A stretch of DNA of 64,000 nt from an uncultured Syntrophomonadaceae bacterium (lineage in GTDB: Bacteria > Bacillota > Dethiobacteria > DTU022): contig CAZAKI010000004.1 in assembly GCA_964485855.1 (NCBI GenBank), forward strand, positions 2,343-66,342, in the 5' to 3' direction. The first letter of the stretch is position 1; each line of letters begins with the position of its first letter. This document shows, piece by piece, positions 1 to 23,318 of this stretch. The notes under the pieces are model-generated. The model was not told the origin of the DNA. It made no database searches and was given only the letters and a program-made list of their open reading frames with translations. A program made the translations under genes and the position numbers.

Positions 1-75
1 CTCGGCTGCGCCGGTTACCTTATCAACGCCGTCTCGACGCTTGACCGAAGTTCCCACATATTTTAAATCAGCCAT
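1..75 (-). CDS. Molybdenum hydroxylase (xanthine dehydrogenase/CO dehydrogenase family) molybdopterin-binding large subunit, N-terminal fragment; the gene continues beyond the window
   Basis: Reverse-complement of 1-75 reads MADLKYVGTSVKRRDGVDKVTGAAE, the typical N-terminus of CoxL/XdhA-type large subunits. It sits directly downstream of the 2Fe-2S and FAD subunit genes on the same strand. Confidence 0.55.
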   Translation of the reverse strand, partial: MADLKYVGTSVKRRDGVDKVTGAAE

Positions 76-94
76 TTATATTCCTCCTTTCGCC

Positions 95-562
95 TTATTT
101 TTTCGTAGAGGCCTTGATAGCCTCCCTGATTTCCTGGTATGCACCGCAACGGCAAAGATTGCCGCTAAGTGCCTCATTGATATCTTGATCAGTCGGGTTT
201 GGCTTACGCTGCAGTAAAGCTTTACTGGCCATGATCATGCCCGGGGTGCAGTAACCGCATTGAAAAGCGGCATGATCGATAAAAGCTTGCTGCAGTTTGT
301 CAAGTTCACCATTTTTTGAAAGCCCTTCAATGGTAGTAAGTTCCTTGCCATCCAATTCAACAGCTAAAACCAAGCAGCTGTTTACCGGTTTGCCATCAAG
401 CAAAACGGTACAAGCACCGCACTCGCCAATTTCGCAACCTTCTTTTGTTCCTTTTAAATTCAGTTCTTCACGGATAAATTTTAGCAAAGTCTGACCAACT
501 ATTGCTTCCCTGGTTTCACGATCTCCGTTTACTGTAAAGTTTATGGTTATTTTTTTTGTCAT
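95..562 (-). CDS. Molybdenum hydroxylase small subunit, [2Fe-2S] ferredoxin-type (CoxS/XdhC-like)
   Basis: 157-aa ORF with the CGxCxxC...C and QCGYCTPG motifs of the 2Fe-2S subunit. The track start at 568 is a GTG; the ATG at 562 follows GGGGGTG at a 5-nt spacer. Confidence 0.85.
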   Translation of the reverse strand: MTKKITINFTVNGDRETREAIVGQTLLKFIREELNLKGTKEGCEIGECGACTVLLDGKPVNSCLVLAVELDGKELTTIEGLSKNGELDKLQQAFIDHAAFQCGYCTPGMIMASKALLQRKPNPTDQDINEALSGNLCRCGAYQEIREAIKASTKK

Positions 563-564
563 CT

Positions 565-1395
565 TCACACCCCCATCGTCTGTTCCAATCCACGACGGAT
601 TAGAACTTCGGCAATATGGTAGCGGTATTCACGCGAGCCTCTTAAGTCAGTAATCGGTGATATATCTTCATGGACTAGACTTGCAGCCTTAGCCCAGTCT
701 TTTTCGCCACCTTCATTAATTGCTTTTTCAACCTGCAGAGCCCTTACCGGGGTCGGAGCAACAGCTCCTACCGCAATACGAACCCGATCGCCCCAACTTT
801 GGACTGCCACCCCAACGGTTGAAAGGTCAACCGATCCGGTTCGGGAGGCCTTAATATAGGTTCCTTTTCCCTGAGGGTAGGGCTTAGGTATTAATACAGA
901 ATGCACCAATTCGCCCTTCTTGAGAGCTGTCTTTCCCGGTCCGATAAAGAATTCTTCAATCGGCATTGATCTTTTTTGTTCCGGCCCAACCAGGTTGATC
1001 ACAGCAGCCAAGCTATAGAGCGGTGCTGCAGTATCGGCAGCTGGAGATGCATTACAGATATTGCCGGCTAAGGTTGCCCGGTTGCGAATAGCATAGCTGC
1101 CAACACTGTGGGCTCCTTCAGCCAGAGGCGCAGCATGCTTGATAATCGGTTCAAATAGAGCCACTTGATTGAGAGTAACCGCAGCGCCAATCGTAATGCC
1201 GGCATCATCTTCCTTCAAAACCTGCAGCTCTTCAAGCCCCTTTATATCAACCAGTAAACGGGGGGCAAATTTGCCACCGCGCATACCTACCATCAGGTCT
1301 GTGCCTCCCGCCAGCGGAAAAACCTGTTCGCCACTTTTAAGTTGTTCGAAGGCCTGTTTTAGATTCTCACACTTTACATAGTCGTAAGTAAGCAT
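565..1395 (-). CDS. Molybdenum hydroxylase FAD-binding medium subunit (CoxM/XdhB-like)
   Basis: 276-aa ORF with the FAD-binding PCMH-type domain signature (AGGTDL...). A GGAGGTG Shine-Dalgarno lies 10 nt upstream. Its stop abuts the start of the small-subunit gene. Confidence 0.85.
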   Translation of the reverse strand: MLTYDYVKCENLKQAFEQLKSGEQVFPLAGGTDLMVGMRGGKFAPRLLVDIKGLEELQVLKEDDAGITIGAAVTLNQVALFEPIIKHAAPLAEGAHSVGSYAIRNRATLAGNICNASPAADTAAPLYSLAAVINLVGPEQKRSMPIEEFFIGPGKTALKKGELVHSVLIPKPYPQGKGTYIKASRTGSVDLSTVGVAVQSWGDRVRIAVGAVAPTPVRALQVEKAINEGGEKDWAKAASLVHEDISPITDLRGSREYRYHIAEVLIRRGLEQTMGV

Positions 1396-1437
1396 TTGAC
1401 TGGATCACCTCCATTTAAAATATTTACTTAATTACTA

Positions 1438-2739
1438 TTATTTAGCCAGCTCTTTCAGTGCTGCAACAAATATTTCCATCGGCGGTTTAACAATACCGGC
1501 CCCAACCTGCCCGACCCCGGCATCTTTATGCGCTATACCGGTATTAATACGCGGAACAATTCCTTTTTCCACTACCTTGCGGACATCGATACCAGTCGGG
1601 GTTCCTTTGAAGTCCATGGCGGGGATGTTGAAGTTATTATTTTCCGCCACTGTAATCTCATACATTTCATTGGTTGCTTCAAAAGCATCGGCTGGCGAGC
1701 CACCGATAAAGTTGACAATCGCCGGTGCTGCAGCCATGGCGAAGCCACCGATACCAACCGTTTCAGTAATAACACTGTCCCCGATATCGGGATTGGCATC
1801 GGAAGCCTTGAAGCCTGAGAAGTAAAGCCCGTCGGGGACATTGGCCGGTGCAGTAAACCATTTATCGCCGGTGCTGCTAACCCTGATGCCAAAGTCGGTT
1901 CCGTTGCGGGCCAAGGTAGTAACAACAGTTGAATGCTCAATACCATGGGCAGCCAGAGCCATGCTCTTACAGGCTGCCATAATGGCATTTAGCGAAGTCA
2001 AATCATTACTGTGCATAAAAGCAAGAACTTCAGCAGCAGCAGTTGCCTTACCATCCTTAAAGTATTCAGACACGTTTGAAAGATCGAGGCGCGGCGCATC
2101 GTAATCTTTTTTCTTACCCCATTCGGTTTCAACTATAAACGGAGCAATACTGCGAATGAAAAGAGAGGTTGTTGCCCGATTCCGATTATGGCCATCGTCA
2201 CCCATATGCAAGGCTTGAGCGATGATTGACTTAATATCGATTCCCTTAGCCAAATGTACAGCTTCTTTGATCACCGATGCATAGACTTCATCCAACCACT
2301 TTAAGCGGTTCAGGACCGATTCATCATATGCCCCGTAGCGCAAAACTTTGCCATATCCTTCATTCATATTTGAGTAAGTAAAACCGCCCCACTCCTTGTC
2401 TTCAAGAATGAAAACCATTTGTGAGGGCGTGGTTACTCCGGCCATCGGACCTACGGTGTTGTAGTGATGACAGGGCGCAAATTCAATATCACCTGAAGCT
2501 GCCAGTTTTTCTGCTTCTTCACGGTTTTTAGCTTTTCCTTCATAAATGAGGCCGCCGATAATCGCTCCTTTCAGCGGACCACTCATCCTGTCCCAGGTGA
2601 TTGGCGGTCCGGCATGGAGAAAAAGGTTTTCCTTCATCCCGGGAATAACATCCTTGGCTCGTCCGACATCAACCCAAACTGGACGGGAAAGCATCATCCT
2701 TTTTACTGCTTCCTGATTTGCTTGATCAATCTTACTCAT
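1438..2739 (-). CDS. DUF1116 family protein (YlbE/AllG-like)
   Basis: 433 aa, the size of a full-length YlbE. It has a GGAGGTG Shine-Dalgarno and lies between an fdrA-like gene and the Mo-hydroxylase genes on the same strand. Confidence 0.75.
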   Translation of the reverse strand: MSKIDQANQEAVKRMMLSRPVWVDVGRAKDVIPGMKENLFLHAGPPITWDRMSGPLKGAIIGGLIYEGKAKNREEAEKLAASGDIEFAPCHHYNTVGPMAGVTTPSQMVFILEDKEWGGFTYSNMNEGYGKVLRYGAYDESVLNRLKWLDEVYASVIKEAVHLAKGIDIKSIIAQALHMGDDGHNRNRATTSLFIRSIAPFIVETEWGKKKDYDAPRLDLSNVSEYFKDGKATAAAEVLAFMHSNDLTSLNAIMAACKSMALAAHGIEHSTVVTTLARNGTDFGIRVSSTGDKWFTAPANVPDGLYFSGFKASDANPDIGDSVITETVGIGGFAMAAAPAIVNFIGGSPADAFEATNEMYEITVAENNNFNIPAMDFKGTPTGIDVRKVVEKGIVPRINTGIAHKDAGVGQVGAGIVKPPMEIFVAALKELAK

Positions 2740-2760
2740 AAAAATTACACCTCCGCAAGA

Positions 2761-2928
2761 TTATTTTAATTTATCCAGCAAGCTGAGCAGATCATCATTA
2801 CCCATAGCGGGCGGCTGCCAGCGTACATGCATAACCGGTGTTTCTCTTTCTTTCAAAGTTTCGGCAAACCCTTCTAATCCCATATTTATAATTTTCAATT
2901 CGCTTCTAAAAAGCTTCTCCACTTGCAT
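2761..2928 (-). CDS. Small hypothetical protein, 55 aa (MQVEKLFRSELKIINMGLEGFAETLKERETPVMHVRWQPPAMGNDDLLSLLDKLK); absent from the ORF track
   Basis: ATG preceded by GGAGG (gattGGAGGtcgATG). It exactly fills the gap between the fdrA stop and the DUF1116 start on the same strand. Confidence 0.4.
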   Translation of the reverse strand: MQVEKLFRSELKIINMGLEGFAETLKERETPVMHVRWQPPAMGNDDLLSLLDKLK

Positions 2929-2999
2929 CGACCTCCAATCGGAACAGTAGTTGTGAGTAATAATATTTTAAGCTATTTTCTTCCATCAGCACCAACGTT

Positions 3000-4544
3000 T
3001 CAAGAAAGTAAGGCGCCAATAAATGATACAGCATCGGCATTGCTGGGGAATACTAATACGCCTGCTTTTTCCAACTTGGCAACCTGTTTGTCACGTTGCT
3101 GCGGATCGGCATCAGTTCCACATACTGAAGTAACAAAGATAATCTGTCGATTCTCTTTGGCAGCAATTGATTGTGCTTCATGAATTGCTTCCAATGCTGA
3201 GCCAGCCGGATCAGGGTGGGCATTATAGCCAAGCACTAGGTCGATCATGATTACTGCTGTTTTAGGATCTTTTGCCTCATTGATGATCCTGCTGTTTCTC
3301 AGCGCCGGATCAATCATCGGGTGCAGACGCCCCTGGGTAAATTCATCTTCCCCAAAATCAATAACCGTATGTTTGACACTCTTGTAAACGTCAGCGATTT
3401 TCTCTGCCTGTTTATAACTTAAATTCGTATAGATTGGCTTAACTTGATCCTGTAGCATAATTAGAGCTTCGTACGCCAGGGTTCCGCCAGAATAAAGCGC
3501 TCTTAAGTATTTTTGTTTTTCTGTGAGCTTATTTTTGACCTTAGCCGCCAAATCACTATAGTCTTTAACTACTCCTTCCGTCTCTGCCTGCTTGCCGCGA
3601 GAAAGGCTTACAGCCAAATAAGCTGCTTCCTTCAAGGTGGCGGCAGGGATGCAGCCTGCACTGCGAACCTGTTCAAGATCACCGCCTAAAAAGTTTACGA
3701 CAATCGGCTTATCACTTTTTTCGGCAACAGCCAACACCTTTTCCGTAACCGCCGCATCAGGTGGTTTGGAGACAATAACCACAACTTTTGTTTGATCGTC
3801 TTCCAGGAGGGCTTTCAAACCCATGAGCATACTTATCCCGCCGACTGCTTCCTTGACATCCCGACCACCGGTACCAATTCCCTGACTGATCCCTTCACCC
3901 AGGTTATTGATCAGGGTCGATACCTCCTGCAGTCCGGTTCCGGCTGCAGCAACAATGCCAATTTCGCCTTGCTTTACCTCATTGGCAAAAGCCAGCGGCA
4001 CTCCATTAATAATGGCTGTTCCGCAGTCCGGTCCCATGACCAACAAACCCTTTTCCTCGGCTTTCTTCTTCAGGGAAATTTCCGTTTCCAGGGTAACGTT
4101 ATCACTAAAAATCATCACGTTTAGCCCGGCATCAAGAATTTGGTGTACTTCCCTTTCAACATAACGGCCGGGGATTGATATCAGGGCCATGTTTGCACCT
4201 GGAAAATTCTTAAGAGCCGTTTCAAAGGTACGCGGAACAAATTCGCCAAGCAGATTCTCTCTTTCCACTGATTTATTCAATTCATCCAAAGCTGACTGAA
4301 TTGCTTTTTCTGCTTTTTCCTCATTTTCAGCCTTCACTGCAATAATCAGATCATTGGAACCGGCACCCTTTTCTACCTCTTCACTCCATAACCCACCGGA
4401 TTGTAAAAATTTCTTATTATGATCGGTCCCGATGATTACTTCAGCTTCAATCACACCATCAAAATTTCTGACTGTGTTTGATAAGCGCATTAGGTAAACC
4501 GAATCACGAAATGTGTTTTTTGAAATATAACTTTTTAGAATCAA
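3000..4544 (-). CDS. fdrA: FdrA-like protein (succinyl-CoA-synthetase-alpha-like CoA-binding/ligase domains; AllF-like)
   Basis: 514-517 aa with the NAD/CoA-binding Rossmann and CoA-ligase domain pattern of FdrA. The track start at 4553 is a TTG that directly abuts GGAGG (0-nt spacer). The TTG three codons in has a 9-nt spacer and is the preferred start. Confidence 0.75.
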   Translation of the reverse strand: MILKSYISKNTFRDSVYLMRLSNTVRNFDGVIEAEVIIGTDHNKKFLQSGGLWSEEVEKGAGSNDLIIAVKAENEEKAEKAIQSALDELNKSVERENLLGEFVPRTFETALKNFPGANMALISIPGRYVEREVHQILDAGLNVMIFSDNVTLETEISLKKKAEEKGLLVMGPDCGTAIINGVPLAFANEVKQGEIGIVAAAGTGLQEVSTLINNLGEGISQGIGTGGRDVKEAVGGISMLMGLKALLEDDQTKVVVIVSKPPDAAVTEKVLAVAEKSDKPIVVNFLGGDLEQVRSAGCIPAATLKEAAYLAVSLSRGKQAETEGVVKDYSDLAAKVKNKLTEKQKYLRALYSGGTLAYEALIMLQDQVKPIYTNLSYKQAEKIADVYKSVKHTVIDFGEDEFTQGRLHPMIDPALRNSRIINEAKDPKTAVIMIDLVLGYNAHPDPAGSALEAIHEAQSIAAKENRQIIFVTSVCGTDADPQQRDKQVAKLEKAGVLVFPSNADAVSFIGALLS

Positions 4545-4618
4545 ATAAAACAACCTCCTACTTCATTTATAATTTTTATTGGCCAGAGGAATTTTGCATA
4601 ATTATTTTAGATTTGCTT

Positions 4619-4648
4619 TGACATTTTTAAAAATTAAACATTTATAAG
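4619..4648 (+). promoter_or_regulatory. Candidate sigma-A promoter for the pucR-like gene (TTGACA, 17 nt, TTTATA)
   Basis: TTGACA tttttaaaaattaaaca TTTATAAG sits in the AT-rich divergent intergenic region. A second TTGACA at 4712 (the TTG taken as the ORF-track start) is also a -35-like hexamer, not a start. Confidence 0.35.
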
Positions 4649-4777
4649 CGATTTCCTTTAGATTATATCACTAAATTTTAAAATGTCCTTTGTAATTATA
4701 CTACAAATTAATTGACAAGGTTCTTATTTTCTTGCTATTCTGAAGGTAAAGTTGGTTCCCTTGGGGGGAGAGCAGGC

Positions 4778-6466
4778 ATGCAAAAACAATATGGTATTAC
4801 GGTTAAAGATGCTTTATCGTTGGATGTCGTTAATCGTCTAAAGGTCGTTGGTGGCAAAAACGGTCTTGATCGGGTTATCAAGCTGGTCAACGTGATTGAA
4901 GTGCCCGATATTATGGACTGGTTAATCGACGGAGAGTTTTTGCTGACAACCGGTTATTCTTTTCGGGAGTACCCGGAACTGATGCAATCATTAATCCCAC
5001 GGATGAGTGAGGCAGACAGTGCCGCTTTAGCCATTAAAACCAAACGCTATCTAAACGAAATACCCGACGAGATTATTACCAGTGCCAATCAGTATAAAAT
5101 TCCCCTGCTTGAAGTGCCATATGATCTATCTTTCTCCGAAATAATTGCCCCCATCTTAGGCGTTGTTTTTAGCAAGCAGAATAAAATATTACAAAAACTG
5201 GAGCAAGCTCATAAAAAGCTGATGGACTTAGCGTTAAACGGGAGCCCCCTGGAAGAGCTGTGTAAGGAAACCGGAAAACTCATTGCAAACCCCGTTGCGA
5301 TTGTTGATCGGGAAGGTTTTATCATCGTCAATGACGACTGTCCTGATAAATATAAATTCGAGCTCTTTTTTTCCGACGGCAGCATCGAGATCAAAAAAGA
5401 AAAATTGCGCTTCGGTAACATCAAAGAGGTAAAATATTCTCTTGAATATGCCGCTGAAAAAAATGCCCCGCCGACGATTAAAGCCCTGCGCATTCCAATC
5501 ATTGCTGACAAGTACCAGTTCGGCCACATGGTGGCTATTGTCAACAATCCTGTATTTGAACCTGACATCTTAACGATGGAAAGGGCGGCAACGATCGCCG
5601 CCCTGGAATTTACGAAACGCAAGGCCATCCGTGAAATTGAAAAAAGTTACTATAATGACTTTCTTGAAATACTACTTTCGTGTGATTTTGAAAGCAGCAG
5701 CGAAATAATCAACCGCGGCCGGGTTTTCAACATCAACCTTGAGCTGCCGACAGCCGTAATCCTCATAAACGACAGCAGCTTCGATCAAATTGCTGAAATA
5801 AAGCAGTACATTAATATTAATGGCACCCGCTCCAAGGAAGGCCTGTTGAAATTGATCAATACTTTTTTTGCCCAGGAAAAAATCGAAAACTTTATTGCCG
5901 GTATTAAAGGTAACAATATTGTCATCGTTGGCAGCACACCTGACGACAACGCCAATGCTAACTTAAAAGATATAGTTACTGAACTGGCAGCTTATTTAAA
6001 AAACTCTCTCAGTCCGTCAAAAACATTAAATATCGGCGTCGGCCGCAACTACTCTGATTTGCGTCAGATCAATCGTAGCTTTGAAGAGGCCCGTGAATCA
6101 CTGCGCATTGCCCAGTTGGCAGATCAAAACCAGGTTGTTTTTTTTGATAATCTTGGATTTTATAAAATTCTCAGTGAAAAGAATCGCGGAGATCTGGACA
6201 GCTTTGTTCAAGAATTGTTAAAGCCGGTTTTCGATTACGATCAAACCCGTAAAGGGGAACTGATAAAAACTTTGGAAACTTATTATGAGACAAACCGCAA
6301 TTTAAAGATGACCTCAACTAAACTTTTTACTCACTACAATACCGTATTATATCGAATTAAAAAAATTGAAGAGCTAACTGGTTTATGTTTTGACAACCCC
6401 GAAGATGTTTTGAACCTTGAAATAGCAGTCAATATCCTGAAGCTCTTTCGCAGCCAAAAGGTTTGA
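4778..6466 (+). CDS. PucR/CdaR-family transcriptional regulator (purine catabolism regulator-like)
   Basis: C-terminal PucR-type HTH (…TSTKLFTHYNTVLYRIKKIEELTG…) and a GGDEF-like middle domain. The real start is probably the ATG at 4778, after GGGGGGAGAG. The track start at 4712 lies within a -35-like hexamer. Confidence 0.8.
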   Translation: MQKQYGITVKDALSLDVVNRLKVVGGKNGLDRVIKLVNVIEVPDIMDWLIDGEFLLTTGYSFREYPELMQSLIPRMSEADSAALAIKTKRYLNEIPDEIITSANQYKIPLLEVPYDLSFSEIIAPILGVVFSKQNKILQKLEQAHKKLMDLALNGSPLEELCKETGKLIANPVAIVDREGFIIVNDDCPDKYKFELFFSDGSIEIKKEKLRFGNIKEVKYSLEYAAEKNAPPTIKALRIPIIADKYQFGHMVAIVNNPVFEPDILTMERAATIAALEFTKRKAIREIEKSYYNDFLEILLSCDFESSSEIINRGRVFNINLELPTAVILINDSSFDQIAEIKQYININGTRSKEGLLKLINTFFAQEKIENFIAGIKGNNIVIVGSTPDDNANANLKDIVTELAAYLKNSLSPSKTLNIGVGRNYSDLRQINRSFEEARESLRIAQLADQNQVVFFDNLGFYKILSEKNRGDLDSFVQELLKPVFDYDQTRKGELIKTLETYYETNRNLKMTSTKLFTHYNTVLYRIKKIEELTGLCFDNPEDVLNLEIAVNILKLFRSQKV

Positions 6467-6491
6467 TCGAAAGCTAGAGCTATAAGAATTC

Positions 6492-6526
6492 AAAAAGGGG
6501 CCGGTATAAATTCCGGCCCCTTTTTA
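6492..6526. terminator. Bidirectional rho-independent terminator between pucR-like and the permease gene
   Basis: aaaaa GGGGCCGG tataaat TCCGGCCCC ttttt: a perfect GC-rich stem flanked by an A-run and a T-run. Confidence 0.8.
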
Positions 6527-6546
6527 CTAAAGCGGCTAAGCAGTTA

Positions 6547-7914
6547 TTACTGCTTTTTCTCTCCATACATATGCAATCCGCGTTCTTCCTCAGTTCCCGG
6601 TACAATATTATCGAGAATCAGACCAAGAATCGCGGTTACAGCCATACCGGTTGAACCGATTGAAACTACAATGTTGGACAGCCATTGCGGTTCAAAGGAG
6701 ACTCCGGCTGTCTGGAAGTAGTACGGCAAGCTCAGACCCATAAACAGAATAAAACCAATGATCATCTGGTTACGCATTGAATGCATATCTGCTTTAGCCG
6801 AGTTGCTGAGACCGATTGCAGCAATCATCCCAAAGAGGGTGCAGTATAAGCCACCGACGATGGCTCCGGGAATGGTTGCCACCAATCCTCCAAACTTGCC
6901 GATGATCCCCATCAGAATCAAAATTACAACTCCTACGTTAACCACGTAGCGGCTGGCCACTTTGGTCAGACCAACAAGACCGATATTCTCGGTATAGCTG
7001 GTACTGGCCAGACCACCAAAAAGAGCACCGACAAAGCAACCAAGACCTTCCATCCCGATACCACGGCTGATCTGCTTGTCGGTAAGGGGTGGTCCTTCTG
7101 CCGCTTCGTTAATGGCGTGATAGTCGCCGTAGGATTCGATCATCGAGGCCAGGTAGCCGGCTAGGATGATCAGGACAAAGCCGAACTCAAACTTCGGCAT
7201 ACCCCAGGGCAAAACCCAGCCACCGGGACCCCAGGGCAAACGAATCCATGGTGCATTTCGAACCGCATCGAAGCTGACTTCCCCTAAAACCAATCCCAAC
7301 AGGTAAGCAACAATAATCGCCAGCAAAATTGGGAAGAGGGCAAAGAACGGCTTTTTCGGCCCCAAAATCAGGGAGAAAATAAAGGCAAAAACAATCACCG
7401 TAATCGCCAGCCACCAGTTGGCAGCGGCCATTGGGGCACCGGCCTGGTAGAGCGCCAAACCGATCATGGCGATAACCGGGCCGATAACAACCGGGCTGAC
7501 AAACCGCTGCAGTTTACCGATTAAACCGGTGAATCCAACGATCATTTCGACGATCGCGCCAAGTAAAATCGCACCGGCAATATACTGCATCGACATTTCC
7601 ATTCCACCGGCAATAGTCAAGCCGATAATCGCGAAAAACGGTCCTAAAAATGAGAACGATACACCCTGAATAATCGGCAAACGGGTTCCAAAGTTAACCT
7701 GGAAAAAGGTTGCAATACCGGAAGCAAGCATAACAGAGGCAACCAAAATGGCAATTTGCTCCGGTGTCGCACCGAGTGCCGGCGCGATAATCAACGGGAC
7801 TGAAACAGTAGCGCCGAACATGGTCAGTACATGCTGAATACCCAGACCAACAGACCTGGTAAATGGCTTCGGTACCTCGTCCAGCGTGTAAACCATACTT
7901 CTTTCCTCACTCAT
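6547..7914 (-). CDS. NCS2-family nucleobase:cation symporter (xanthine/uracil/uric acid permease-like)
   Basis: 455 aa with about 12 TM segments and NCS2 motifs. A strong Shine-Dalgarno AAGGAGG precedes the ATG. Confidence 0.85.
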   Translation of the reverse strand: MSEERSMVYTLDEVPKPFTRSVGLGIQHVLTMFGATVSVPLIIAPALGATPEQIAILVASVMLASGIATFFQVNFGTRLPIIQGVSFSFLGPFFAIIGLTIAGGMEMSMQYIAGAILLGAIVEMIVGFTGLIGKLQRFVSPVVIGPVIAMIGLALYQAGAPMAAANWWLAITVIVFAFIFSLILGPKKPFFALFPILLAIIVAYLLGLVLGEVSFDAVRNAPWIRLPWGPGGWVLPWGMPKFEFGFVLIILAGYLASMIESYGDYHAINEAAEGPPLTDKQISRGIGMEGLGCFVGALFGGLASTSYTENIGLVGLTKVASRYVVNVGVVILILMGIIGKFGGLVATIPGAIVGGLYCTLFGMIAAIGLSNSAKADMHSMRNQMIIGFILFMGLSLPYYFQTAGVSFEPQWLSNIVVSIGSTGMAVTAILGLILDNIVPGTEEERGLHMYGEKKQ

Positions 7915-8132
7915 TCGTTAAACCTCCTTAAAGAATATTAATAAAACCACGCGCAAAAAGATTCGGTCAATCACCTCCTCCAACTAATTTCGCATATTCA
8001 GAAAGCAAGCTATTGATTTCGATTAAAATATAAAATTTAGGGAATACTATTTTTTCTCAATATTATTAAATTCAATACCTCGCAGTAAATACCTTTATTA
8101 CAGTATAATAATTTTTATGCAACATTTTTGTT

Positions 8133-8828
8133 TTACCTACACAAAATGCTGTTTTCAGCAAAAAGGTTTAAAGCATAGGTTATGGCAATGGCCAGATCAG
8201 AGCCGGTGCTTGAACCAATCTTCAGCAACCGGTGTAAATGTTCTTCAGCGCAATGTCCTTCGTTAAGTGCTTCCAGGTAGGAACCGACCACCGCAGGTGT
8301 AAGGCCGCGCTTGCCTATTTCCAGCATATGTTGACCAAACAATCCTGTTTCAAAAGGCATTTCAAGTTGAGACAAGTTAAATGACTGCTTGACTCTCCTG
8401 CCATTCACCAAGGCACTATAGGCTATAAATACTCCGTGAATCAGGTCATCGCCGGTTGGCGTCAAGCCGTGTCCCATCCCAGAAATATTTCGACAACTTT
8501 TAATTAATTCCTGCCTCTTTTGATCAATCAAAGCATTGATCAGATCCGGAATATTTTTTTTGATCGCATTCCTGAAGTATTCTTCACCGCCAGGTCTATT
8601 CAGCAGTACAGCTGCAGGAGTATGTAGTTCAATACTTTTTAGGAGACTCAAGTAAAAATTCAGAGCTTTGACAACTTTGGGATCGGTCAGATAGCTAGTA
8701 AACACCGGGGCAAAGGAAATTAACATTTCCCTGCCCCGGTTGATACTCATAGCCGCTTCAGCAGGCTTAAATTTAATCTGTCCAGCTGCGTAAATACCTT
8801 CTGTGCCCACTTTAAGAGCTGCTTTCAA
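8133..8828 (-). CDS. DUF2877 family protein (YlbF/AllH-like); conserved sequence continues upstream to about 9020 without a canonical start
   Basis: The track ORF starts at a TTG. The same frame is open for a further 66 codons, up to a TGA at 9027-9029. That stretch encodes plausible DUF2877 N-terminal sequence (…LSLLSVYDHVFNLAVE…) but contains no ATG/GTG/TTG. Confidence 0.6.
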   Translation of the reverse strand: MKAALKVGTEGIYAAGQIKFKPAEAAMSINRGREMLISFAPVFTSYLTDPKVVKALNFYLSLLKSIELHTPAAVLLNRPGGEEYFRNAIKKNIPDLINALIDQKRQELIKSCRNISGMGHGLTPTGDDLIHGVFIAYSALVNGRRVKQSFNLSQLEMPFETGLFGQHMLEIGKRGLTPAVVGSYLEALNEGHCAEEHLHRLLKIGSSTGSDLAIAITYALNLFAENSILCR

Positions 8829-9021
8829 CCGGCACCAGTCGCGATTGGCAATGCCGATCGTTGCCGGTCCCTTTTCAAACTGTTGATCAGCAATAAAAAG
8901 CAGATGTTTCCAGCTTTCAACTGCGAGATTGAAGACATGATCATATACAGAAAGTAGACTTAGCCGGTAGGTGCCAGCATAGGAATCAAGATCAGCGGCA
9001 GACCAGATCGTTTCAATCGTC

Positions 9022-10215
9022 CTAAATCACACCTTTTTCGCGCCAAGCGGCAATTTTATCAGCGTTATAACCAAGGTTGCTCAATATTTCATCCGTATGC
9101 TGACCGAGTGTAGGCGGCGGCATAGTAATCGCTCCTGGAGTCAGTGAAAGCTTGGTTGGCACACCAATCAGTTTAATCGTCCCGGCCAGAGGGTGTTCCT
9201 GCTCGACCACCATTTCCCGGATTTTAACATGGGGATCGGTCAAAACCTGGTCAATGGTCCTGATCCGACCGCAGGGCACCCCGGAAGTTTCCATGATTTC
9301 AACCCACTGTTCGGTGCTCTTTTGCCTGGTCAACTCTTCAATAATTGCTTTCAGTTCAGCCGGATGCTGGTTGCGGCTTTTCATGTCGACAAAACGCGAG
9401 TCATCGTTTAATTCCGGTTTACCAAGCGCTTCGACAAAACTTTCCCACAGCCTCTGGTTGCCAACAGCAAAGATTACATAACCATCTTTTGTTTCGAAAC
9501 TTTCATAAGGCGTAATCATCGGGTGACGGTTGCCAACCCGGTTCGGAGCTTTACCGGTCGCCAGATAGTTACCGGCCTGGTAGGTCAGAATAGCGATGAT
9601 CGAATCCATCAGGGAAACGTCAACGAACTGACCCTGACCGTTCTTGTTTTTAGCCAGCAGGGCCAGTAGAATCCCTTCGACGGCATGAAAACCGCCAAGA
9701 ACATCGGCAATGGCTACCCCCAGCCGTTGTGGTGGTCCATCGGGAAATCCGGTAATGCTCATCAACCCGGCCTCACCCTGGATCATAACGTCGAAACTTG
9801 GCTTCTCCCGGTAGGGACTATTGTGCCCATAACCGGTGATCGAGCAGTAGATAATATCTTCCTTAATTTTTTTTACATCTTCGTAGGTCAGACCCATTTT
9901 TGCCGTAACCCCGATCCGGAAGTTCTCGACAAATATATCGGCTTCTGCAATCAGCCGCTGTAAAATCTCACGGGCATCCTGTTCACGCAGATTCAGGGTA
10001 ATACTTTTCTTGCTGCGGTTGAATGAAAGGTAATAAGCTGATTCTCCTTCAAGGAAAGGGGGACCTAATTCGCGTGAATCGTCACCCTTGTTTGGGGTTT
10101 CTACTTTAATCACCTCGGCCCCCATATCACCCAGTTTCATTGTACAATAGGGTCCGGCAATAAAACGACTTAAATCAACAACTTTTAAACCTGAAAGCGG
10201 CTTGTCCATCATCAA
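9022..10215 (-). CDS. Family III CoA-transferase (CaiB/BaiF family; formyl-CoA transferase/L-carnitine dehydratase-like)
   Basis: 397 aa. N-terminal LKVVDLSRFIAGPYCTMKLGDMGAEVIKVE is the family III CoA-transferase signature. Confidence 0.85.
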   Translation of the reverse strand: MMMDKPLSGLKVVDLSRFIAGPYCTMKLGDMGAEVIKVETPNKGDDSRELGPPFLEGESAYYLSFNRSKKSITLNLREQDAREILQRLIAEADIFVENFRIGVTAKMGLTYEDVKKIKEDIIYCSITGYGHNSPYREKPSFDVMIQGEAGLMSITGFPDGPPQRLGVAIADVLGGFHAVEGILLALLAKNKNGQGQFVDVSLMDSIIAILTYQAGNYLATGKAPNRVGNRHPMITPYESFETKDGYVIFAVGNQRLWESFVEALGKPELNDDSRFVDMKSRNQHPAELKAIIEELTRQKSTEQWVEIMETSGVPCGRIRTIDQVLTDPHVKIREMVVEQEHPLAGTIKLIGVPTKLSLTPGAITMPPPTLGQHTDEILSNLGYNADKIAAWREKGVI

Positions 10216-10313
10216 TTCCTCCTTTAACTGAAAAAATTGATTCTACAAAGAGTGCTCTATTCCTGCTTTGATTTTTTTCAATCCTCCCTCTTTAATTTTC
10301 GCTCTGGGCGGTG

Positions 10314-10341
10314 TATAATCAAAAAAACAAACATTTGTTCG
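10314..10341 (+). promoter_or_regulatory. -10 box TATAAT followed by a LexA (Cheo-box-like) operator upstream of dinB
   Basis: TATAAT at 10314-10319. CAAACATTTGTTCG at 10328-10341 matches the Firmicutes LexA box CGAAC-N4-GTTCG with two mismatches. It sits directly upstream of a Y-family polymerase gene. Confidence 0.5.
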
Positions 10342-10363
10342 CCTATTAGGTGGTTGGTGTAAC

Positions 10364-11596
10364 GTGAATGAAAAGATAATTTTTTTAGCTGATATGGAAT
10401 CTTTCTACGCCAGTGTCGAGACAGCCCGCAACCCCGCCCTGCGAGGCAAGCCTGTGGCGGTTTGCGGCGACCCGGCCTTGCGTCACGGCATTATCCTGGC
10501 CGCCAGCCGTGAAGCAAAAGCCTACGGTATCAAAACAGGACAGCCGGCTTGGGAAGCAAGACGCATGTGTCCCTGGATCACCTTCGTCCACCCGCACATG
10601 CAGGCTTATATCGATTATTCGCTGCGCATTACCGCGATCTTTGAGCAGTTCACCGATCGGGTAGTTCCTTACTCAATTGACGAACAATTTCTTGATCTGA
10701 GTCATTCCAAATTGCTATACGGCAACCCCCGCGAGGCGGCCCAGGTGCTGATCGATAAAATCTGGAATGAAATTGGCATCCGCTGCCGCATCGGCATGGG
10801 CGAGAATCCACTGCAGGCCAAGATGGCTTGCGACTGCTTCGCCAAAAAACTTCCGGATCTATTTTTCGAGCTGAACAACGACAACTATGCCCTTTACATC
10901 TGGCCCCTGCCGATTATTTCCCTTTTCGGAGTTGGTCACCGCATGCAGCGCAACTTGCAGCGCATCGGCGTGCGCACCATCGGCCACCTTGCTGCCCTGC
11001 CCCGTGAAATGATCGGTCGGCGCTGGGGCATCTGCGGCGAAGTCCTCTGGTTAAATGCTAATGGAATTGACTATTCTTCCGTTGCACCGGATCAGCTCCA
11101 GGAGCAAAAAGGCATCGGCCATATGGCAACCCTGCCCCGCGATTACCGCAAGCAGCAGGAAATTGAGCTGGTGTTGCTGGAGATGACCGAAGAGGTTTGT
11201 CAGCGGACTCGGAGGCACCAAAAAATCGGCACCACTATTCATCTCTACTGCCGGGGAGCCGATTTTGATCACCCTTCCGGCTTTTCCCGCCAGAAAAAAC
11301 TGCCCGTCACTACGGCCAATGCGCTCGATATTTACCCAACTGTACTGCAGTTGTTCCGCAAGCACTGGGATCGCCGACCGCTACGGGCGATCGGCATCAG
11401 TTTAAGCGGCCTTACCGCTTACCGCCAATTGCAACTGGCATTCTCAACCCGCAGCGCACAAGAAGAGACCCTGACCAAAACCGCCGATCTGATTCGGACC
11501 AGGTTCGGTAAAACCAGCCTTTTTCGCGCCTCTTCGTTGAAACCGGGAGCCCAGCTTTTCCAGCGGGCCGGTAAGATCGGGGGGCATGATTCTTGA
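10364..11596 (+). CDS. dinB: Y-family DNA polymerase IV (DinB/UvrX-like)
   Basis: 410 aa with the IMS/UmuC family N-terminus (FLADMESFYASVE…). GTG start follows GGTGG. Confidence 0.85.
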   Translation: MNEKIIFLADMESFYASVETARNPALRGKPVAVCGDPALRHGIILAASREAKAYGIKTGQPAWEARRMCPWITFVHPHMQAYIDYSLRITAIFEQFTDRVVPYSIDEQFLDLSHSKLLYGNPREAAQVLIDKIWNEIGIRCRIGMGENPLQAKMACDCFAKKLPDLFFELNNDNYALYIWPLPIISLFGVGHRMQRNLQRIGVRTIGHLAALPREMIGRRWGICGEVLWLNANGIDYSSVAPDQLQEQKGIGHMATLPRDYRKQQEIELVLLEMTEEVCQRTRRHQKIGTTIHLYCRGADFDHPSGFSRQKKLPVTTANALDIYPTVLQLFRKHWDRRPLRAIGISLSGLTAYRQLQLAFSTRSAQEETLTKTADLIRTRFGKTSLFRASSLKPGAQLFQRAGKIGGHDS

Positions 11597-11937
11597 GTAA
11601 AAAATTTAACCAGCAATTTGCCTGCAGCCGGATGATGCTTCCCGAACACTGTGGCAGTTTGCGGGAACAGGCCGCCGCAAAAATAAAGGCCGAAGAACAG
11701 CGCAAACCCCTGATCGACGAACAACTACAGGAAGAACAACAGCAGCTCCTGGAACAAGCGCTCCGTGGCCGCAAGCGCCTGAGATTTGAAGTGCTTACCA
11801 GATCCGGCCGTGTATCCTTTAGCGGTGTGCCGCGCCGACTAGACGAAAATGCCGGTATGATTCTAATCGATACCGGCAGCAGCAAACTGGAGAAGATCAG
11901 TTCCGCCGCGGTGATCAAGCTCAGCGGTGAATACTGA
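11593..11937 (+). CDS. YolD-like protein (partner of Y-family polymerases)
   Basis: 114 aa. It overlaps the dinB stop by 4 nt (ATGA), and has the size and position typical of yolD/yozL-type genes downstream of uvrX/dinB homologues. Confidence 0.55.
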   Translation: MSKKFNQQFACSRMMLPEHCGSLREQAAAKIKAEEQRKPLIDEQLQEEQQQLLEQALRGRKRLRFEVLTRSGRVSFSGVPRRLDENAGMILIDTGSSKLEKISSAAVIKLSGEY

Positions 11938-11964
11938 TTGACTTCTCTCAGTTAAGCTTAAGGT

Positions 11965-13143
11965 TTATTCCATCTCAACAGTGCAGGCGATACCCTGACC
12001 ACCACCAATGCAGAGTGTTGCCAGACCTTTTTGCACCTTACGCTTTTGCATTTCGTAAAGCAGGGTTACAAATATCCTGGCTCCGCTAGCTCCAATCGGG
12101 TGACCAATGGCAATGGCCCCGCCATTAACGTTGACGATTGAAAGATCAAGGTTAAGTTCCCGACTGACAGCTAAAGCCTGCACGGCAAATGCTTCGTTGG
12201 CCTCGATCAGCTGCAAGTCAGGAACTGTCCATCCGGCTTTGGATAAAGCTTTTCTTGTAGCCGGTATCGGTCCGGTACCCATGATTGCCGGATCTACCCC
12301 GGCAGAGGCATAGCTCTTAATCAGGGCCAGCGGTTTTAAGCCAAGTTCTCTTGCCTTAGAGCTGCTCATCACTACCACTGCTGCAGCACTATCATTTATA
12401 CCGGAAGCATTTCCGGCAGTTACCGTGCCGTCTTTTTTGAAAGCAGGTTTGAGTTTGGCCAGTGCTTCGAGGGTCGTCATGCGTGGATGTTCGTCGACAG
12501 AAAAGATCAGGGGGTCACCCTTTCTCTGAGGCACTTCTACCGGAACAATCTCATCTTTAAAACGACCGTTTTCAATCGCCGCCATTGCTCTCTGCTGGCT
12601 TTCAAGCGCAAATTGATCCTGATCATCGCGGGTGATCTTAAATTTTACGGCAATATTTTCAGCTGTCATTCCCATGTGGTAATCATTGAATGCGCACCAT
12701 AAACCGTCTTTGATCATGGAATCCACCATGTTGCTGTCACCCATGCGCAACCCCCAACGGGCACCATTTACCAGGTAAGGAGCAGCGCTCATATTTTCTG
12801 TGCCGCCGGCCACGATTATTTCGGCTTCACCGGCAATAACAGCATTGGCAGCCAGGGTTATGCTACGTAACCCCGATCCGCAAACCTTATTAACTGCCAG
12901 GCAGGGGGTTTCATTTGGTAGCCCGGCCTTCAGGGCAGCCTGGCGCGCAACATTCTGACCCAAACCAGCCTGCAATACACAGCCCATGATCACTTCATCA
13001 ACCTGTTCAGGTTTTAAACCGGCTCGTTGTAAGGTCTCCTTGATCACCAGCGCTCCAAGGGTTACAGGACTGATATCTTTAAGTGATCCGCCAAAAGTGC
13101 CGACCGCAGTTCTTACAGCACTAACCACTACTGCTTCTTGCAT
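11965..13143 (-). CDS. Acetyl-CoA C-acetyltransferase (thiolase II)
   Basis: 392 aa with canonical thiolase motifs ([21 protein letters not shown], catalytic C-terminal GGGQG). Confidence 0.9.
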
Positions 13144-13166
13144 CTAGATTTCCTCCATTCTTTTTA

Positions 13167-13946
13167 CTAGGCTCGACCGATAATGTAGCGATAAGGATCG
13201 ACTTCGTTACGCAAAATATTTAATTCATCAGTTGTTGGTGGATTACTTTCTTGCAAACCGGCAGACCATAGTAACTCAAAGCCGGTATTCTCAACAATTT
13301 TTTCTTGACTGATTCCGGGATGCATACTTTCAACTTTCATCCGCTTGGTCTGCTCGTCAAATCCAATTACGCAAAGGTTGGTGATCACCTTGTAGGGACC
13401 GCTTCCGGGTGGCAAACCTGCTTCTTCCCTTGCTCCCGGGCCGGTTAGATAACCAGGGGTAGTGATAAAATCAATTTTTTCTGTAAAACGACGTTGATCC
13501 TGGGGAGTAATCATCATCGTCTTCCAACAGAGTGAACCAAGATCATTTGCCCCGCCGCTGCCCGGAAAGCGAACCTTTGGTTTGCGGTAATCGGTGCCGA
13601 TCATCGTCGAATTGATGTTGCCGTACTTATCAATCTGAGCTCCCCCCAGGAAGGTATAGTCAACCAGACCCCTTTGGCAGGTTTCCATGATATCCGGCAT
13701 ACTGCTGGCAGCCAAAGCCCGATAAAAGGTTCTTGAATCACCAACTGAAATCGGCATTGACGGTAATAGTGGACCGATGCCACCGGCTTCGAACATGATC
13801 ATCAAACGCGGTGAATAGAGTTTCTGGGCCAACATGGCCGCAGCACAAGGAGCTCCGGTGCCTACCACAACAATACTGTCATCTTCCAGATAACGCGAAG
13901 CAAGGCAGATCATCAGTTCCATGTCGTTATATTCCATTATCAACAA
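13167..13946 (-). CDS. Family I CoA-transferase subunit B (glutaconate/3-oxoacid CoA-transferase beta-like)
   Basis: 259 aa. It resembles GctB/AtoA-type beta subunits and lies immediately downstream of the subunit A gene. Confidence 0.8.
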   Translation of the reverse strand: MLIMEYNDMELMICLASRYLEDDSIVVVGTGAPCAAAMLAQKLYSPRLMIMFEAGGIGPLLPSMPISVGDSRTFYRALAASSMPDIMETCQRGLVDYTFLGGAQIDKYGNINSTMIGTDYRKPKVRFPGSGGANDLGSLCWKTMMITPQDQRRFTEKIDFITTPGYLTGPGAREEAGLPPGSGPYKVITNLCVIGFDEQTKRMKVESMHPGISQEKIVENTGFELLWSAGLQESNPPTTDELNILRNEVDPYRYIIGRA

Positions 13947-13970
13947 CCTCCTTGGCAGGTTACTAAATAT

Positions 13971-14993
13971 TTATTTTTCAATCAGATTTTCCTGGTGGCG
14001 CAGTTCCTGTAAGCGCTTTAAACCACCAATTTGATCAAGATAACCGTTGAAATCATTAACCCCATAAATATAACGATTAAGAAATTCAGCCAGTTCAGCT
14101 GGGTTGGCTTCTGCCTTTAACCACTCTCGCAAGTGGTCCTCGTCACTAAAATACTCGTAGGGCATATTACCAGGATAGCTGCCGAATGGCACCTCAATCA
14201 CGGCATCAACCAGATAATAAGGAATTACTGTTCTGGTTGGATCACGGCGAATCTGTTCATTGGGAATCAGCTTCTCGGTAGTGATAATCAAGCGCTTGGC
14301 GGCCCTGGCTAAATCGTTATCAGCAACCATGATCCCGTCAATCTGGCAGTTGCCGTAAATATCAGCCCGATGGACATGGATGATACCAACATCCGGGAAA
14401 AGTGCGGGTACCGCAAGATACTTAGCTCCGGTAAAAGGACACTCCATCTCCATCGCTGCACTGTATTTTTGGGTGTCAGTACCCAACATGCAGCGAATCG
14501 GCATAAAAGATAATCCCATTGCAGCCGCTTTGTAGCGCCAGGTGAGGGCGGCATTGGTCCATTCGGTGGTCTCCACTTCTCCGCTTTCGATTGCCAGGCG
14601 GGCAATCTTGGAAAGACCGCGTGCCTCTAATCCCACGACGTAAGCTATATCACAGCGATCAATACATTTACCGGCCACCAGAATCTGAAAATCATGGGTT
14701 GCCGTATGTCCAGCCAAGCCTAAATTCTTCTTCTTCTGGCGCACCATTTCGTGCAACACTGCTGTTGGAATCCGGTTAGCACCAAAACCGCCGACCCCTA
14801 CATAGTCACCATCGTTGATTAATTTATTTACCGCTTCACCAACCGTTGTTGTCTTTTCCACCATTTTACGAGGCTTTTGGTCACGAAAAAATAATCGAGC
14901 CCGATCGGCATCCGGATCAGTAAAAATTCTGCCACTGCCGGCTGGTTTGTAGATTGCCTGCTTTTCCTTTAATAATTCGCTGAAATCTGCCAT
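13971..14993 (-). CDS. Family I CoA-transferase subunit A (glutaconate CoA-transferase alpha-like)
   Basis: Similar to GctA. The preferred start is the ATG at 14993 after GGAGGTGG. The track start at 15020 is a GTG with a 1-nt spacer. Confidence 0.8.
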   Translation of the reverse strand: MADFSELLKEKQAIYKPAGSGRIFTDPDADRARLFFRDQKPRKMVEKTTTVGEAVNKLINDGDYVGVGGFGANRIPTAVLHEMVRQKKKNLGLAGHTATHDFQILVAGKCIDRCDIAYVVGLEARGLSKIARLAIESGEVETTEWTNAALTWRYKAAAMGLSFMPIRCMLGTDTQKYSAAMEMECPFTGAKYLAVPALFPDVGIIHVHRADIYGNCQIDGIMVADNDLARAAKRLIITTEKLIPNEQIRRDPTRTVIPYYLVDAVIEVPFGSYPGNMPYEYFSDEDHLREWLKAEANPAELAEFLNRYIYGVNDFNGYLDQIGGLKRLQELRHQENLIEK

Positions 14994-15099
14994 AAAACCA
15001 CCTCCTGTAATAATATCCACTTCCTTAGAAAGCTATTTCAGTTGCTACCATTAATAACCTCATGATCTATTCTATAGATTAATATTATTCCCTTCAACC

Positions 15100-15147
15100 A
15101 AAAAAGGTTAACCCCTCCTCACGGTTCGGTTGGAACGGATTAACCTT
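15100..15147 (-). terminator. Rho-independent terminator downstream of the acyl-CoA ligase gene
   Basis: AAGGTTAA…TTAACCTT stem. On the minus strand it is followed by a U-run (A-run 15100-15105 on the plus strand). Confidence 0.6.
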
Positions 15148-15172
15148 AATCGCTAGCCACTAGACTAGATTG

Positions 15173-16837: not shown

Positions 16838-16917
16838 TTTTAATCCTCCTCATTTCACCTGCAAAGGTTTTATCGAAGCAGTGCATAAATCGTTTGACGT
16901 TACCGTCCCGCAGATTA

Positions 16918-19763: not shown

Positions 19764-19829
19764 AGCAAACAGAAGTTGTTTCTGTATTTAATGCTGCAGC
19801 TTAAGGTAGAATAATTTCAGTTTTTTTAT

Positions 19830-20615: not shown

Positions 20616-20628
20616 GCGATTCACCACC

Positions 20629-23293: not shown

Positions 23294-23318
23294 TTGTCGA
23301 TCGCTCCTTTCTCCAATT

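Follow-up and report, generated by a model that had tools for sequence, protein, structure and literature searches.

The 64,000-nucleotide stretch of DNA analysed here (the window, in what follows) comes from contig CAZAKI010000004.1 of an uncultured Syntrophomonadaceae bacterium. Its first 10 kb encode homologues of the three proteins of the Escherichia coli oxamate carbamoyltransferase, FdrA/AllF, AllG (DUF1116) and AllH (DUF2877), together with a three-subunit molybdenum (Mo) hydroxylase, a family III CoA-transferase, a PucR-family regulator and an NCS2 nucleobase permease. We propose that these genes are the core of a conserved N-heterocycle catabolic locus of anaerobic Bacillota, in which a heterocycle would be hydroxylated and an acylurea would then be cleaved to carbamoyl phosphate. 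A pyrimidine of the uracil/thymine type is the most probable substrate, and the pathway as modelled below has, in our judgement, slightly less than an even chance of being correct; in the general claim of hydroxylation followed by acylurea cleavage we are considerably more confident than in the pyrimidine model. Since the gene set of the window is only the reduced core of a fuller one, the substrate call for the window organism is tentative.

Genes were called from a listing of open reading frames (ORFs) and from Pfam and NCBIfam profile scans of the window, and absences were assessed by tblastn. Six metagenome contigs with an identical AllG, L001 among them, extend the locus past position 1, and the sequence covered amounted to about 74 kb, the window plus some 10 kb beyond that position. 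A scan of species-representative genomes gave 30 loci, which were annotated against a reference set. A metagenome scan with the Mo-subunit alignment gave 80 loci, of which 27, with a Mo-subunit identity of 47-55% and at least 8 kb of flank, make up the distant set. Every pathway assignment in these clusters was drawn from gene context, the reaction of E. coli AllFGH being the only one demonstrated.

The AllFGH triad and its link with the Mo hydroxylase

Purified E. coli AllF, AllG and AllH together constitute oxamate carbamoyltransferase, which interconverts oxalurate plus phosphate and oxamate plus carbamoyl phosphate (PMC11326118). By profile, all three families are present at the window locus. 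FdrA scored 506 bits with NF004760 (cut-off 433) and its closest solved structure is E. coli FdrA (3dmy), AllG is closest to 3clq (E = 6e-123), and AllH reached 50 bits with PF11392 (cut-off 25). FdrA shared 38% identity with AllF and 43% with YahF of E. coli, and 46-48% with the proteins of Anoxybacter fermentans and Halanaerobiales; for AllG the figures were 43% with its E. coli namesake, 47% with YahG and 54-57% with the proteins of A. fermentans, Carboxydothermus islandicus and Halanaerobiales, and the window AllH was undetectable by BLASTP in the comparison with E. coli. All the genes named, with their positions, in an earlier prediction made from the letters of the DNA were recovered in the ORF listing and by the profiles, and the gene map agrees with its description of a triad split around the PucR and NCS2 permease genes.

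Downstream of AllG lie the FAD, [2Fe-2S] (FeS) and Mo subunits of the hydroxylase, in this order; the original prediction had named the same three subunits. AllG and FAD are separated by 42 nt, FAD and FeS overlap by 4 nt and FeS and Mo are 19 nt apart. Because these gaps are short and no credible terminator was found from FdrA to FeS, we consider that the hydroxylase is operonic with FdrA and AllG, as had been predicted. The link between triad and hydroxylase is real: AllG was followed by FAD-FeS-Mo in 27/27 genome loci with an AllG identity of at least 81% and downstream sequence present, and triad genes were found in 10/10 metagenome loci with a Mo-subunit identity of at least 67% and a flank of at least 8 kb. 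The 30 genome loci come nearly all from metagenome-assembled genomes (MAGs) of uncultured Syntrophomonadaceae or Bacillota, several of them from soda-lake sediments. About 25 species-level MAGs keep a single order, namely CoA-transferase, AllH, permease, PucR (divergent), FdrA, tail ORF, AllG, FAD, FeS, Mo, YqeB, an 89-residue protein and YqeC/MocA, and given this recurrence the locus is not a chance juxtaposition. Across the MAGs with this reduced layout the identities were 88-95% for AllG, 78-93% for Mo and 72-82% for FdrA.

The C-terminal tail of FdrA is detached in the window as a 53-residue ORF, which corresponds to the final 47 positions in the FdrA profile and carries its own GGAGG ribosome-binding site and GTG start. 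The same segment is a free ORF in a Clostridiaceae MAG (L009), in A. fermentans (59 residues) and in a Halanaerobiales MAG, it is fused as the C-terminus in E. coli AllF and in the FdrA of L008, and it is fused as the N-terminus in E. coli YahG. Considering that the segment shifts between the two proteins, its distribution suggests that it physically joins FdrA and AllG. We also considered whether FdrA continues past its stop by selenocysteine read-through or by a frameshift, and rejected both, since the tail ORF is in another frame, has its own ribosome-binding site and GTG, and stands free in distant genomes.

The AllH frame opens one codon past an in-frame TGA and overlaps the stop of the CoA-transferase gene. 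The N-terminal 66 codons (8829-9026) lie upstream of the first ATG/GTG/TTG and include the family-invariant N33, G53 and P54; the AllH of L011 and of L008 align to this frame without break from 9020 and 9017, respectively, and a canonical start codon is likewise missing there in L020, L021 and L014. On these alignments the likeliest explanation would be a non-canonical start codon, for example ATT at 9017; alternatively, there may have been a recent truncation. An AlphaFold2 model of AllH from a 13-sequence alignment had a mean pLDDT of 56, too low for a fold search. AllH evolves fast, with 34-52% identity between MAGs in which AllG is 88-95% and the Mo subunit 80-93% identical.

Past position 1, the identical contigs encode the 765-residue Mo subunit, YqeB, the 89-residue protein, a YqeC-MocA fusion and a divergent MoaE. 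The original prediction had proposed to look there for the Mo large subunit and for selenium-insertion genes, and both were found: YqeB scored 351 bits with TIGR03309 (cut-off 220) and YqeC 152 bits with TIGR03172 (cut-off 73), and MocA, the C-terminal half of the fusion, fell just under its cut-off (178 bits, cut-off 186). YqeB and YqeC are proposed accessory proteins of selenium-dependent Mo hydroxylases, in which a three-subunit enzyme of the xanthine dehydrogenase (XDH) family is followed by YqeB, YqeC and MocA (Haft & Self 2008, PMC2276186). An XDH-family Mo/FAD/FeS enzyme with YqeB and YqeC adjacent to it, these two just outside the window, is what we found, and by this gene content the window hydroxylase is probably selenium-dependent.

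With respect to these accessory genes, YqeC and MocA are fused into one protein of 461 residues in the window lineage (L001:16230-17615), and both YqeB (56-68% identity) and YqeC-MocA (40-60%) evolve fast across relatives. The 89-residue protein (L001:15943-16212) stands between YqeB and YqeC-MocA in most related loci; its sole match is a weak one to a zinc ribbon (PF14599, 20 bits, cut-off 27), and perhaps it represents an accessory factor of selenium-dependent Mo hydroxylases that has so far escaped recognition.

Regarding the type of hydroxylase, no equivalog cut-off was reached by the Mo subunit (as encoded in L001), which scored 545 bits as 4-hydroxybenzoyl-CoA reductase alpha (cut-off 995), 540 bits as XdhA (cut-off 780) and 406 bits as PucD (cut-off 784); the FAD subunit scored 110 bits as 4-hydroxybenzoyl-CoA reductase beta (cut-off 405). 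The best solved relative of the Mo subunit is PDB 1rm6, and its identity to E. coli XdhA and XdhD is 28%. The pocket motifs GGGFGGK-A, R-Q, RGFGM(C/S)E and GE are common to the enzymes of the window clade, C. islandicus, A. fermentans and Halanaerobiales, unlike those of E. coli XdhA/XdhD, and for this reason we place the window clade and the enzymes of the fuller clusters in a shared subfamily. All clade members have Ala right behind GGGFGGK, where the xanthine-binding Glu would stand, while the equivalents of the Arg and the catalytic Glu of xanthine dehydrogenase are kept in the window clade. In bovine XDH numbering we take these positions to be Glu802 (here Ala), Arg880 and Glu1261.

Fuller clusters, the predicted pathway and its alternatives

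Mo-subunit homologues at about 50% identity are present in cultured anaerobes, in clusters with a fuller gene set. The order in C. islandicus (L045) is AllG, CoA-transferase, cyclase, carbamate kinase, CN-hydrolase, nitroreductase-like protein, MmdA-like carboxyltransferase, OAD-gamma, biotin carrier, OAD-beta, FAD, FeS, Mo and permease. In A. fermentans (L048) it is FAD, FeS, Mo, permease, HutP, decarboxylase genes, PucR, AllH, FdrA, 59-residue ORF, AllG, CoA-transferase, cyclase, CN-hydrolase and nitroreductase-like protein, and the Halanaerobiales MAG (L049) has the gene order of A. fermentans. The family III CoA-transferase is accompanied by an MmdA-like carboxyltransferase (755 bits), a biotin carrier and a Na+-decarboxylase beta subunit (514 bits, cut-off 191) in these three organisms and in L132. 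In four clusters among the more divergent relatives of the window locus (L031, L033, L034 and L035), PucR and FdrA have a carbamate kinase directly between them (in L031, 419 bits with TIGR00746, cut-off 358), and FdrA is separated from AllG by a CN-hydrolase or a PF04199 cyclase; L008 has both of the latter. A small flavoprotein of the nitroreductase/TM1586 family, with no role in the pathway proposed below, is kept at the end of the C. islandicus (L045:4647-5123), A. fermentans (L048:17258-17737) and Halanaerobiales clusters.

The permeases of these clusters are informative with respect to the substrate. That of C. islandicus falls within the NCBI uracil permease equivalog (659 bits, cut-off 477) and shares 60% identity with UraA of E. 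coli, and that of A. fermentans is 43% identical to UraA and 42% to RutG. In the distant metagenome set a UraA/RutG-like permease adjoins the hydroxylase in 22/27 loci, triad genes are present in 14/27, both in 10/27 and neither in 1/27; a recurrent order is FAD, FeS, Mo, UraA-like permease, PucR, AllH, FdrA, AllG, cyclase and CoA-transferase. The window permease has, in transmembrane segment (TMS) 10, the motif ENIGLVGLTK, with E as in UraA/RutG where XanQ/UacT have Q; the NAT motif of such permeases is defined in PMC5972032. A pyrimidine substrate is argued from the uracil-type permeases of C. islandicus and of the distant loci together with this ENxG form in the window.

That the triad would form carbamoyl phosphate is argued from the demonstrated activity of AllFGH and from the carbamate kinase that stands beside FdrA in the four sister clusters and is also part of the C. 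islandicus cluster. A further argument comes from one distant contig of 10.4 kb (L073; ERZ773359 NODE-6397), in which the triad is absent and the neighbours of FAD-FeS-Mo, a UraA-like permease, YqeB and PucR are instead a knotted carbamoyltransferase like YgeW and a carbamate kinase; this may be a non-orthologous replacement. A malonyl fate of the carbon skeleton is in turn suggested by the company of the CoA-transferase with the MmdA-like and Na+-decarboxylase genes.

Taking these elements together, the predicted pathway runs as follows. The NCS2 permease would import the base, which the three-subunit, probably selenium-dependent Mo hydroxylase would hydroxylate, in the case of uracil at C6 to give barbiturate (malonylurea). 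Opening of the barbiturate ring, probably by the PF04199 cyclase-family hydrolase in the fuller clusters, would give the acylurea ureidomalonate, which is oxalurate plus one CH2. FdrA, the 53-residue tail, AllG and AllH would split ureidomalonate with phosphate into carbamoyl phosphate and malonamate. A carbamate kinase, whose gene is adjacent in the sister clusters and not in the window, would turn carbamoyl phosphate to ATP, and malonamate would be deamidated, probably by the CN-hydrolase in the fuller clusters. The family III CoA-transferase would convert malonate to malonyl-CoA, which in the two cultured species and the Halanaerobiales MAG a biotin-dependent, Na+-pumping complex resembling methylmalonyl-CoA decarboxylase would then decarboxylate; with thymine in place of uracil, this last step would act on methylmalonyl-CoA. 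PucR is expected to control both transcription units. Judged from protein families and gene order, there is in the full clusters a plausible enzyme for every step of this anaerobic pathway, and the window lineage holds its transport, hydroxylase, triad and CoA-transferase parts only.

Several observations weigh against this reading. The window and its 10-kb extension contain no ring-opening hydrolase, amidase, carbamate kinase or decarboxylase, and tblastn of the window gave no match to the cluster-type cyclase, CN-hydrolase or decarboxylase subunits. With the enzymes of the uracil-linked clusters the Mo subunit of the window shares only 48-52% identity, and its substrate may therefore differ. 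The window CoA-transferase is likewise divergent, being 43-46% identical to those of L008, C. islandicus and A. fermentans, which are 62-64% identical among themselves; its best NCBIfam models are of the dicarboxylate type, all below cut-off (succinate-glutarate 385 bits, oxalate 306, mesaconate 305). The window permease is 27-28% identical to the uracil-type permeases (28% to UraA), 29% to XanQ and marginally nearer, at 33%, to the urate transporter UacT. It stays below every NCBIfam equivalog cut-off (uracil permease NF007995, 136 bits, cut-off 477) and, of the motifs EHxGH and ENxG of uracil permeases, it has the second as ENIG but ESYGD in TMS8 in place of the first; we regard it as a member of an uncharacterised subfamily. 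The permease of L009 has a Q-type motif. In addition, L051 and L052 carry the hydroxylase with no triad within reach, and for this reason we describe the triad link at that distance as frequent, not obligatory. The steps given to the cyclase and to the CN-hydrolase are assigned by logic only. The functions absent from the window lineage may have their genes in another part of the genome or may not be needed, or the substrate may be another one. Regarding the missing carbamate kinase, it is a lineage-specific loss or relocation and no evidence for a different chemistry.

It is unlikely, in our estimation, that the locus performs the textbook triad reaction, with a purine-type Mo hydroxylase feeding oxalurate, the triad giving oxamate and carbamoyl phosphate, and the CoA-transferase activating oxalate or oxamate. 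Regulators of the PucR family, like NCS2 permeases, are commonly associated with purine catabolism, and the slight nearness of the window permease to UacT and XanQ, as well as the Q-type motif of L009, would fit this explanation; so would the oxalate type within the CoA-transferase family (NF008511, 392 bits for C. islandicus and 306 for the window, cut-off 522). Two of the sister clusters moreover carry an aspartate carbamoyltransferase-like gene between CoA-transferase and AllH (L031:564-1625 and L034:539-1558; TIGR00670, 246-251 bits, cut-off 237), which could mean that two ureido groups are processed. However, the hydroxylase misses every XDH equivalog cut-off, is only 28% identical to E. 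coli XdhA/XdhD and has Ala at the equivalent of the xanthine-binding Glu, and uracil-type permeases dominate among the relatives. MmdA-type biotin-dependent decarboxylases act on malonyl-type CoA esters, not on oxalyl-CoA, and we know of no anaerobic route from urate to oxalurate. The context in relatives points to a pyrimidine over a purine or nicotinate; the original prediction had spoken of a ring-hydroxylation route for a purine or other N-heterocycle.

The original prediction had further seen in FdrA a carboxylate activator resembling succinyl-CoA synthetase (SCS), for which CoA and an NTP would be required. In such a scheme the triad would be an acid-CoA ligase, or a partner of the CoA-transferase, that makes a heteroaromatic acyl-CoA, and a Mo enzyme like 4-hydroxybenzoyl-CoA reductase would hydroxylate or reductively dehydroxylate the ester. 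FdrA does have SCS-alpha-like CoA-binding and CoA-ligase domains, 4-hydroxybenzoyl-CoA reductase alpha is the best profile and PDB match of the Mo subunit, and a CoA-transferase is present in the locus. Even so, the activity of AllFGH was measured with carbamoyl phosphate and oxamate as substrates, carbamate kinase adjoins FdrA in the sister clusters, and neither an ATP-grasp nor an SCS-beta partner is present; the 4-hydroxybenzoyl-CoA reductase cut-offs are widely missed by both subunits, and the relatives have uracil permeases and no aromatic-acid transporters. We hold this scheme to be quite improbable and the view of the triad as a carboxylate activator to be unsupported. More doubtful still is the idea that the window lineage keeps a decaying remnant, idle after the loss of carbamate kinase, cyclase, amidase and the AllH start. 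The accessory genes are indeed missing by comparison with L008, L031, L034, L035 and the cultured species, the conserved AllH N-terminus has no canonical start upstream, and AllH is 42-52% identical in relatives in which AllG is about 95% identical. Nevertheless, all the genes are intact ORFs with strong ribosome-binding sites, the reduced layout is kept at high identity in about 25 species-level MAGs, and AllH retains every family-invariant motif, including those ahead of the first canonical start.

Features and surroundings of the locus

The coordinates of the features are collected in Table 1. The strong hairpin between the permease and PucR genes terminates the unit of CoA-transferase, AllH and permease and, from the other side, PucR. 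In the divergent region ahead of FdrA there is a promoter-like site on the minus strand (4689..4662; AGGACA, a 16-nt spacer and TATAAT with TG), and AGGAGG stands 9 nt ahead of the TTG start of FdrA at 4544. The PucR start agrees with the 562-residue gene called in L001; in the profile scans the frames of FdrA and PucR were slightly longer, 3000-4553 and 4712-6466, respectively. An operator shared by the FdrA/PucR, CoA-transferase-upstream and permease-upstream regions was sought for PucR and only AT-rich k-mers were common to them, and an Rfam scan of positions 1-12000 gave no riboswitch or leader RNA.

Table 1. Features of the window locus, with positions, strand and the profiles or signals on which each is based.
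Feature	Position	Strand	Profiles and remarks
Family III (CaiB/BaiF) CoA-transferase	9022..10215	-	PF02515, 451 bits; first gene of the CoA-transferase-AllH-permease unit
AllH/DUF2877 homologue	8133..9026	-	PF11392; frame open from 9026, first ATG/GTG/TTG at 8828
NCS2/NAT nucleobase permease, uncharacterised subfamily	6547..7914	-	PF00860, 300 bits
Hairpin terminator common to permease and PucR	6491..6526		14-pair stem (8 G-C), T-rich tail
PucR-family transcriptional regulator	4778..6466	+	PF07905, PF17853, PF13556; ATG at 4778; divergent from the FdrA operon
AT-rich divergent promoter region, FdrA/PucR	4545..4777
FdrA/AllF homologue, 514 residues, without C-terminal tail	3000..4544	-	NF004760, PF00549, PF02629
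53-residue ORF, detached FdrA C-terminal tail	2761..2922	-	NF004760 positions 509-555
AllG/DUF1116 homologue	1438..2739	-	PF06545, 299 bits
Mo hydroxylase FAD subunit	565..1395	-	PF00941, PF03450
Mo hydroxylase [2Fe-2S] subunit	95..568	-	PF01799, PF00111
Mo subunit, first 25 of 765 codons	1..75	-	ATG at 75; runs off the window

Directly upstream of the CoA-transferase, in the opposite orientation, is a pair of genes for DinB (Pol IV) and YolD (10364-11937, plus strand). A DinB homologue stands beside the cluster in 13 related loci and YolD in 6 (at least 7 with the window species), which is a stable placement; in L011, a gene of the ornithine carbamoyltransferase fold lies just upstream of DinB. 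Farther on, a run of acyl-CoA metabolism genes on the minus strand (11965-25123) encodes a thiolase, CoA-transferase subunits A and B, an AMP-forming ligase, a ferredoxin-reductase-like protein, an amine-oxidase-like flavoprotein, an enoyl-CoA hydratase, an SCP-x-type thiolase with a ChsH2/DUF35-like partner, a MaoC hydratase and an SDR protein, and resembles the side-chain beta-oxidation clusters. We rejected this run as a part of the locus, since the oppositely oriented DinB-YolD pair intervenes and L011 has a different gene there. From about 27 to 48 kb the window holds housekeeping genes. At the other end, about 8.3 kb beyond position 1, there is a heliorhodopsin gene (L001:21048-21302; PF18761, with a weak MORN match), and its carrier looks like a strictly anaerobic Syntrophomonadaceae-like MAG.

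Comparison with known systems

Among the closest known systems is the E. coli allFGHK locus (Kim & Kim 2024, PMC11326118), with which the window shares the three protein families, its FdrA lying above the subfamily cut-off; by analogy, the same chemistry is expected, namely phosphorolysis of an acylurea to carbamoyl phosphate, with ureidomalonate rather than oxalurate as the probable substrate. The window differs in that its triad is divided between two transcription units, FdrA and AllG share an operon with a Mo hydroxylase, the FdrA tail is encoded by an ORF of its own, and allK and allB/C/D/E are missing. By tblastn the window gave no match to E. coli AllK, YahI, YqeA, AllA, AllB, AllC, AllD, AllE, YahJ, YgeW, HyuA or SsnA; allantoinase, allantoate amidohydrolase, ureidoglycine aminohydrolase and ureidoglycolate dehydrogenase were found neither in the window nor among the called genes of L001. 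The prediction that carbamate kinase and allantoin genes are absent, and that this is not the textbook E. coli locus, was therefore borne out over the whole window and the 10 kb that follow past position 1. Slightly closer in sequence is the uncharacterised E. coli paralogue yahE-yahF-yahG-yahI-yahJ, with a carbamate kinase and an amidohydrolase; it follows the same logic of ring or amide hydrolase, triad and carbamate kinase, and the mobile tail is fused to YahG, but it lacks a Mo hydroxylase, a CoA-transferase and PucR.

Among the systems with selenium-dependent Mo hydroxylases, the 2,8-dioxopurine (reductive urate) locus of E. coli and Clostridioides difficile (PMC12507026) is also a nucleobase catabolic locus, in which ATP is gained from a ureido group via carbamoyl phosphate, as is predicted here. 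In contrast to it, the window has no YgfK, SsnA, YgeW, YgeX, YgeY or HyuA, its large subunit has the low identity to XdhA/XdhD given above, and its carbamoyltransferase is of the AllFGH and not of the knotted YgeW type. With the 4-hydroxybenzoyl-CoA reductase of Thauera aromatica (PDB 1rm6), the best match of the Mo subunit, the scores are far under the equivalog cut-offs and the gene context in the window is of the nucleobase type, not of the aromatic-acid type.

In the aerobic oxidative pathway of Rhodococcus and Mycobacterium, uracil dehydrogenase, barbiturase and ureidomalonase lead from uracil to barbiturate, ureidomalonate and then malonate plus urea (PMC3758960), and the same intermediates, from uracil to a malonyl unit, are predicted for the clusters described here. 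The hosts of these are strict anaerobes, and their clusters are predicted to release the ureido group as carbamoyl phosphate, conserving energy, instead of urea, and to process malonate via the CoA-transferase and the Na+-pumping decarboxylase. None of the annotated clusters showed a protein of the AtzD/barbiturase family: the Pfam family is not among the called genes of L001, L008, L009, L045, L048 and L049, the window itself not having been searched with a barbiturase sequence. The pyrimidine degradation pathways known are the oxidative, reductive, Rut and URC ones (PMC12507026). The clusters could represent a fifth route, anaerobic and energy-conserving, with the Mo hydroxylase as uracil dehydrogenase (selenium-dependent in some lineages), an AllFGH paralogue as ureidomalonate phosphorylase and a Na+ pump driven by malonyl-CoA decarboxylation, a route of which the Syntrophomonadaceae-like lineage of the window would run a streamlined version; taken as a whole, we consider this proposal serious and yet somewhat more doubtful than probable.

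Neither the enzyme families nor the oxidative pyrimidine chemistry is new in itself; what is new is their anaerobic, potentially energy-conserving combination, which is not described in the literature found: a full-text search, with subscription journals largely outside its reach, gave no paper that connects FdrA/DUF1116/DUF2877 to Mo hydroxylases, to barbiturate or to uracil. If the proposal is true, the FdrA/DUF1116/DUF2877 family, which was de-orphaned only recently and is very widespread (an AllG search returned at least 8,000 candidates at E <= 1e-10), would have another substrate and another role in physiology besides the known ones, and there would be gene candidates for the long-unassigned uracil dehydrogenase. 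The proposal is directly testable, given that the full cluster occurs in two cultured species, A. fermentans and C. islandicus. It would also add an anaerobic counterpart to the four known pathways of pyrimidine degradation and show how fermenters could gain both ATP and an ion gradient from a pyrimidine.

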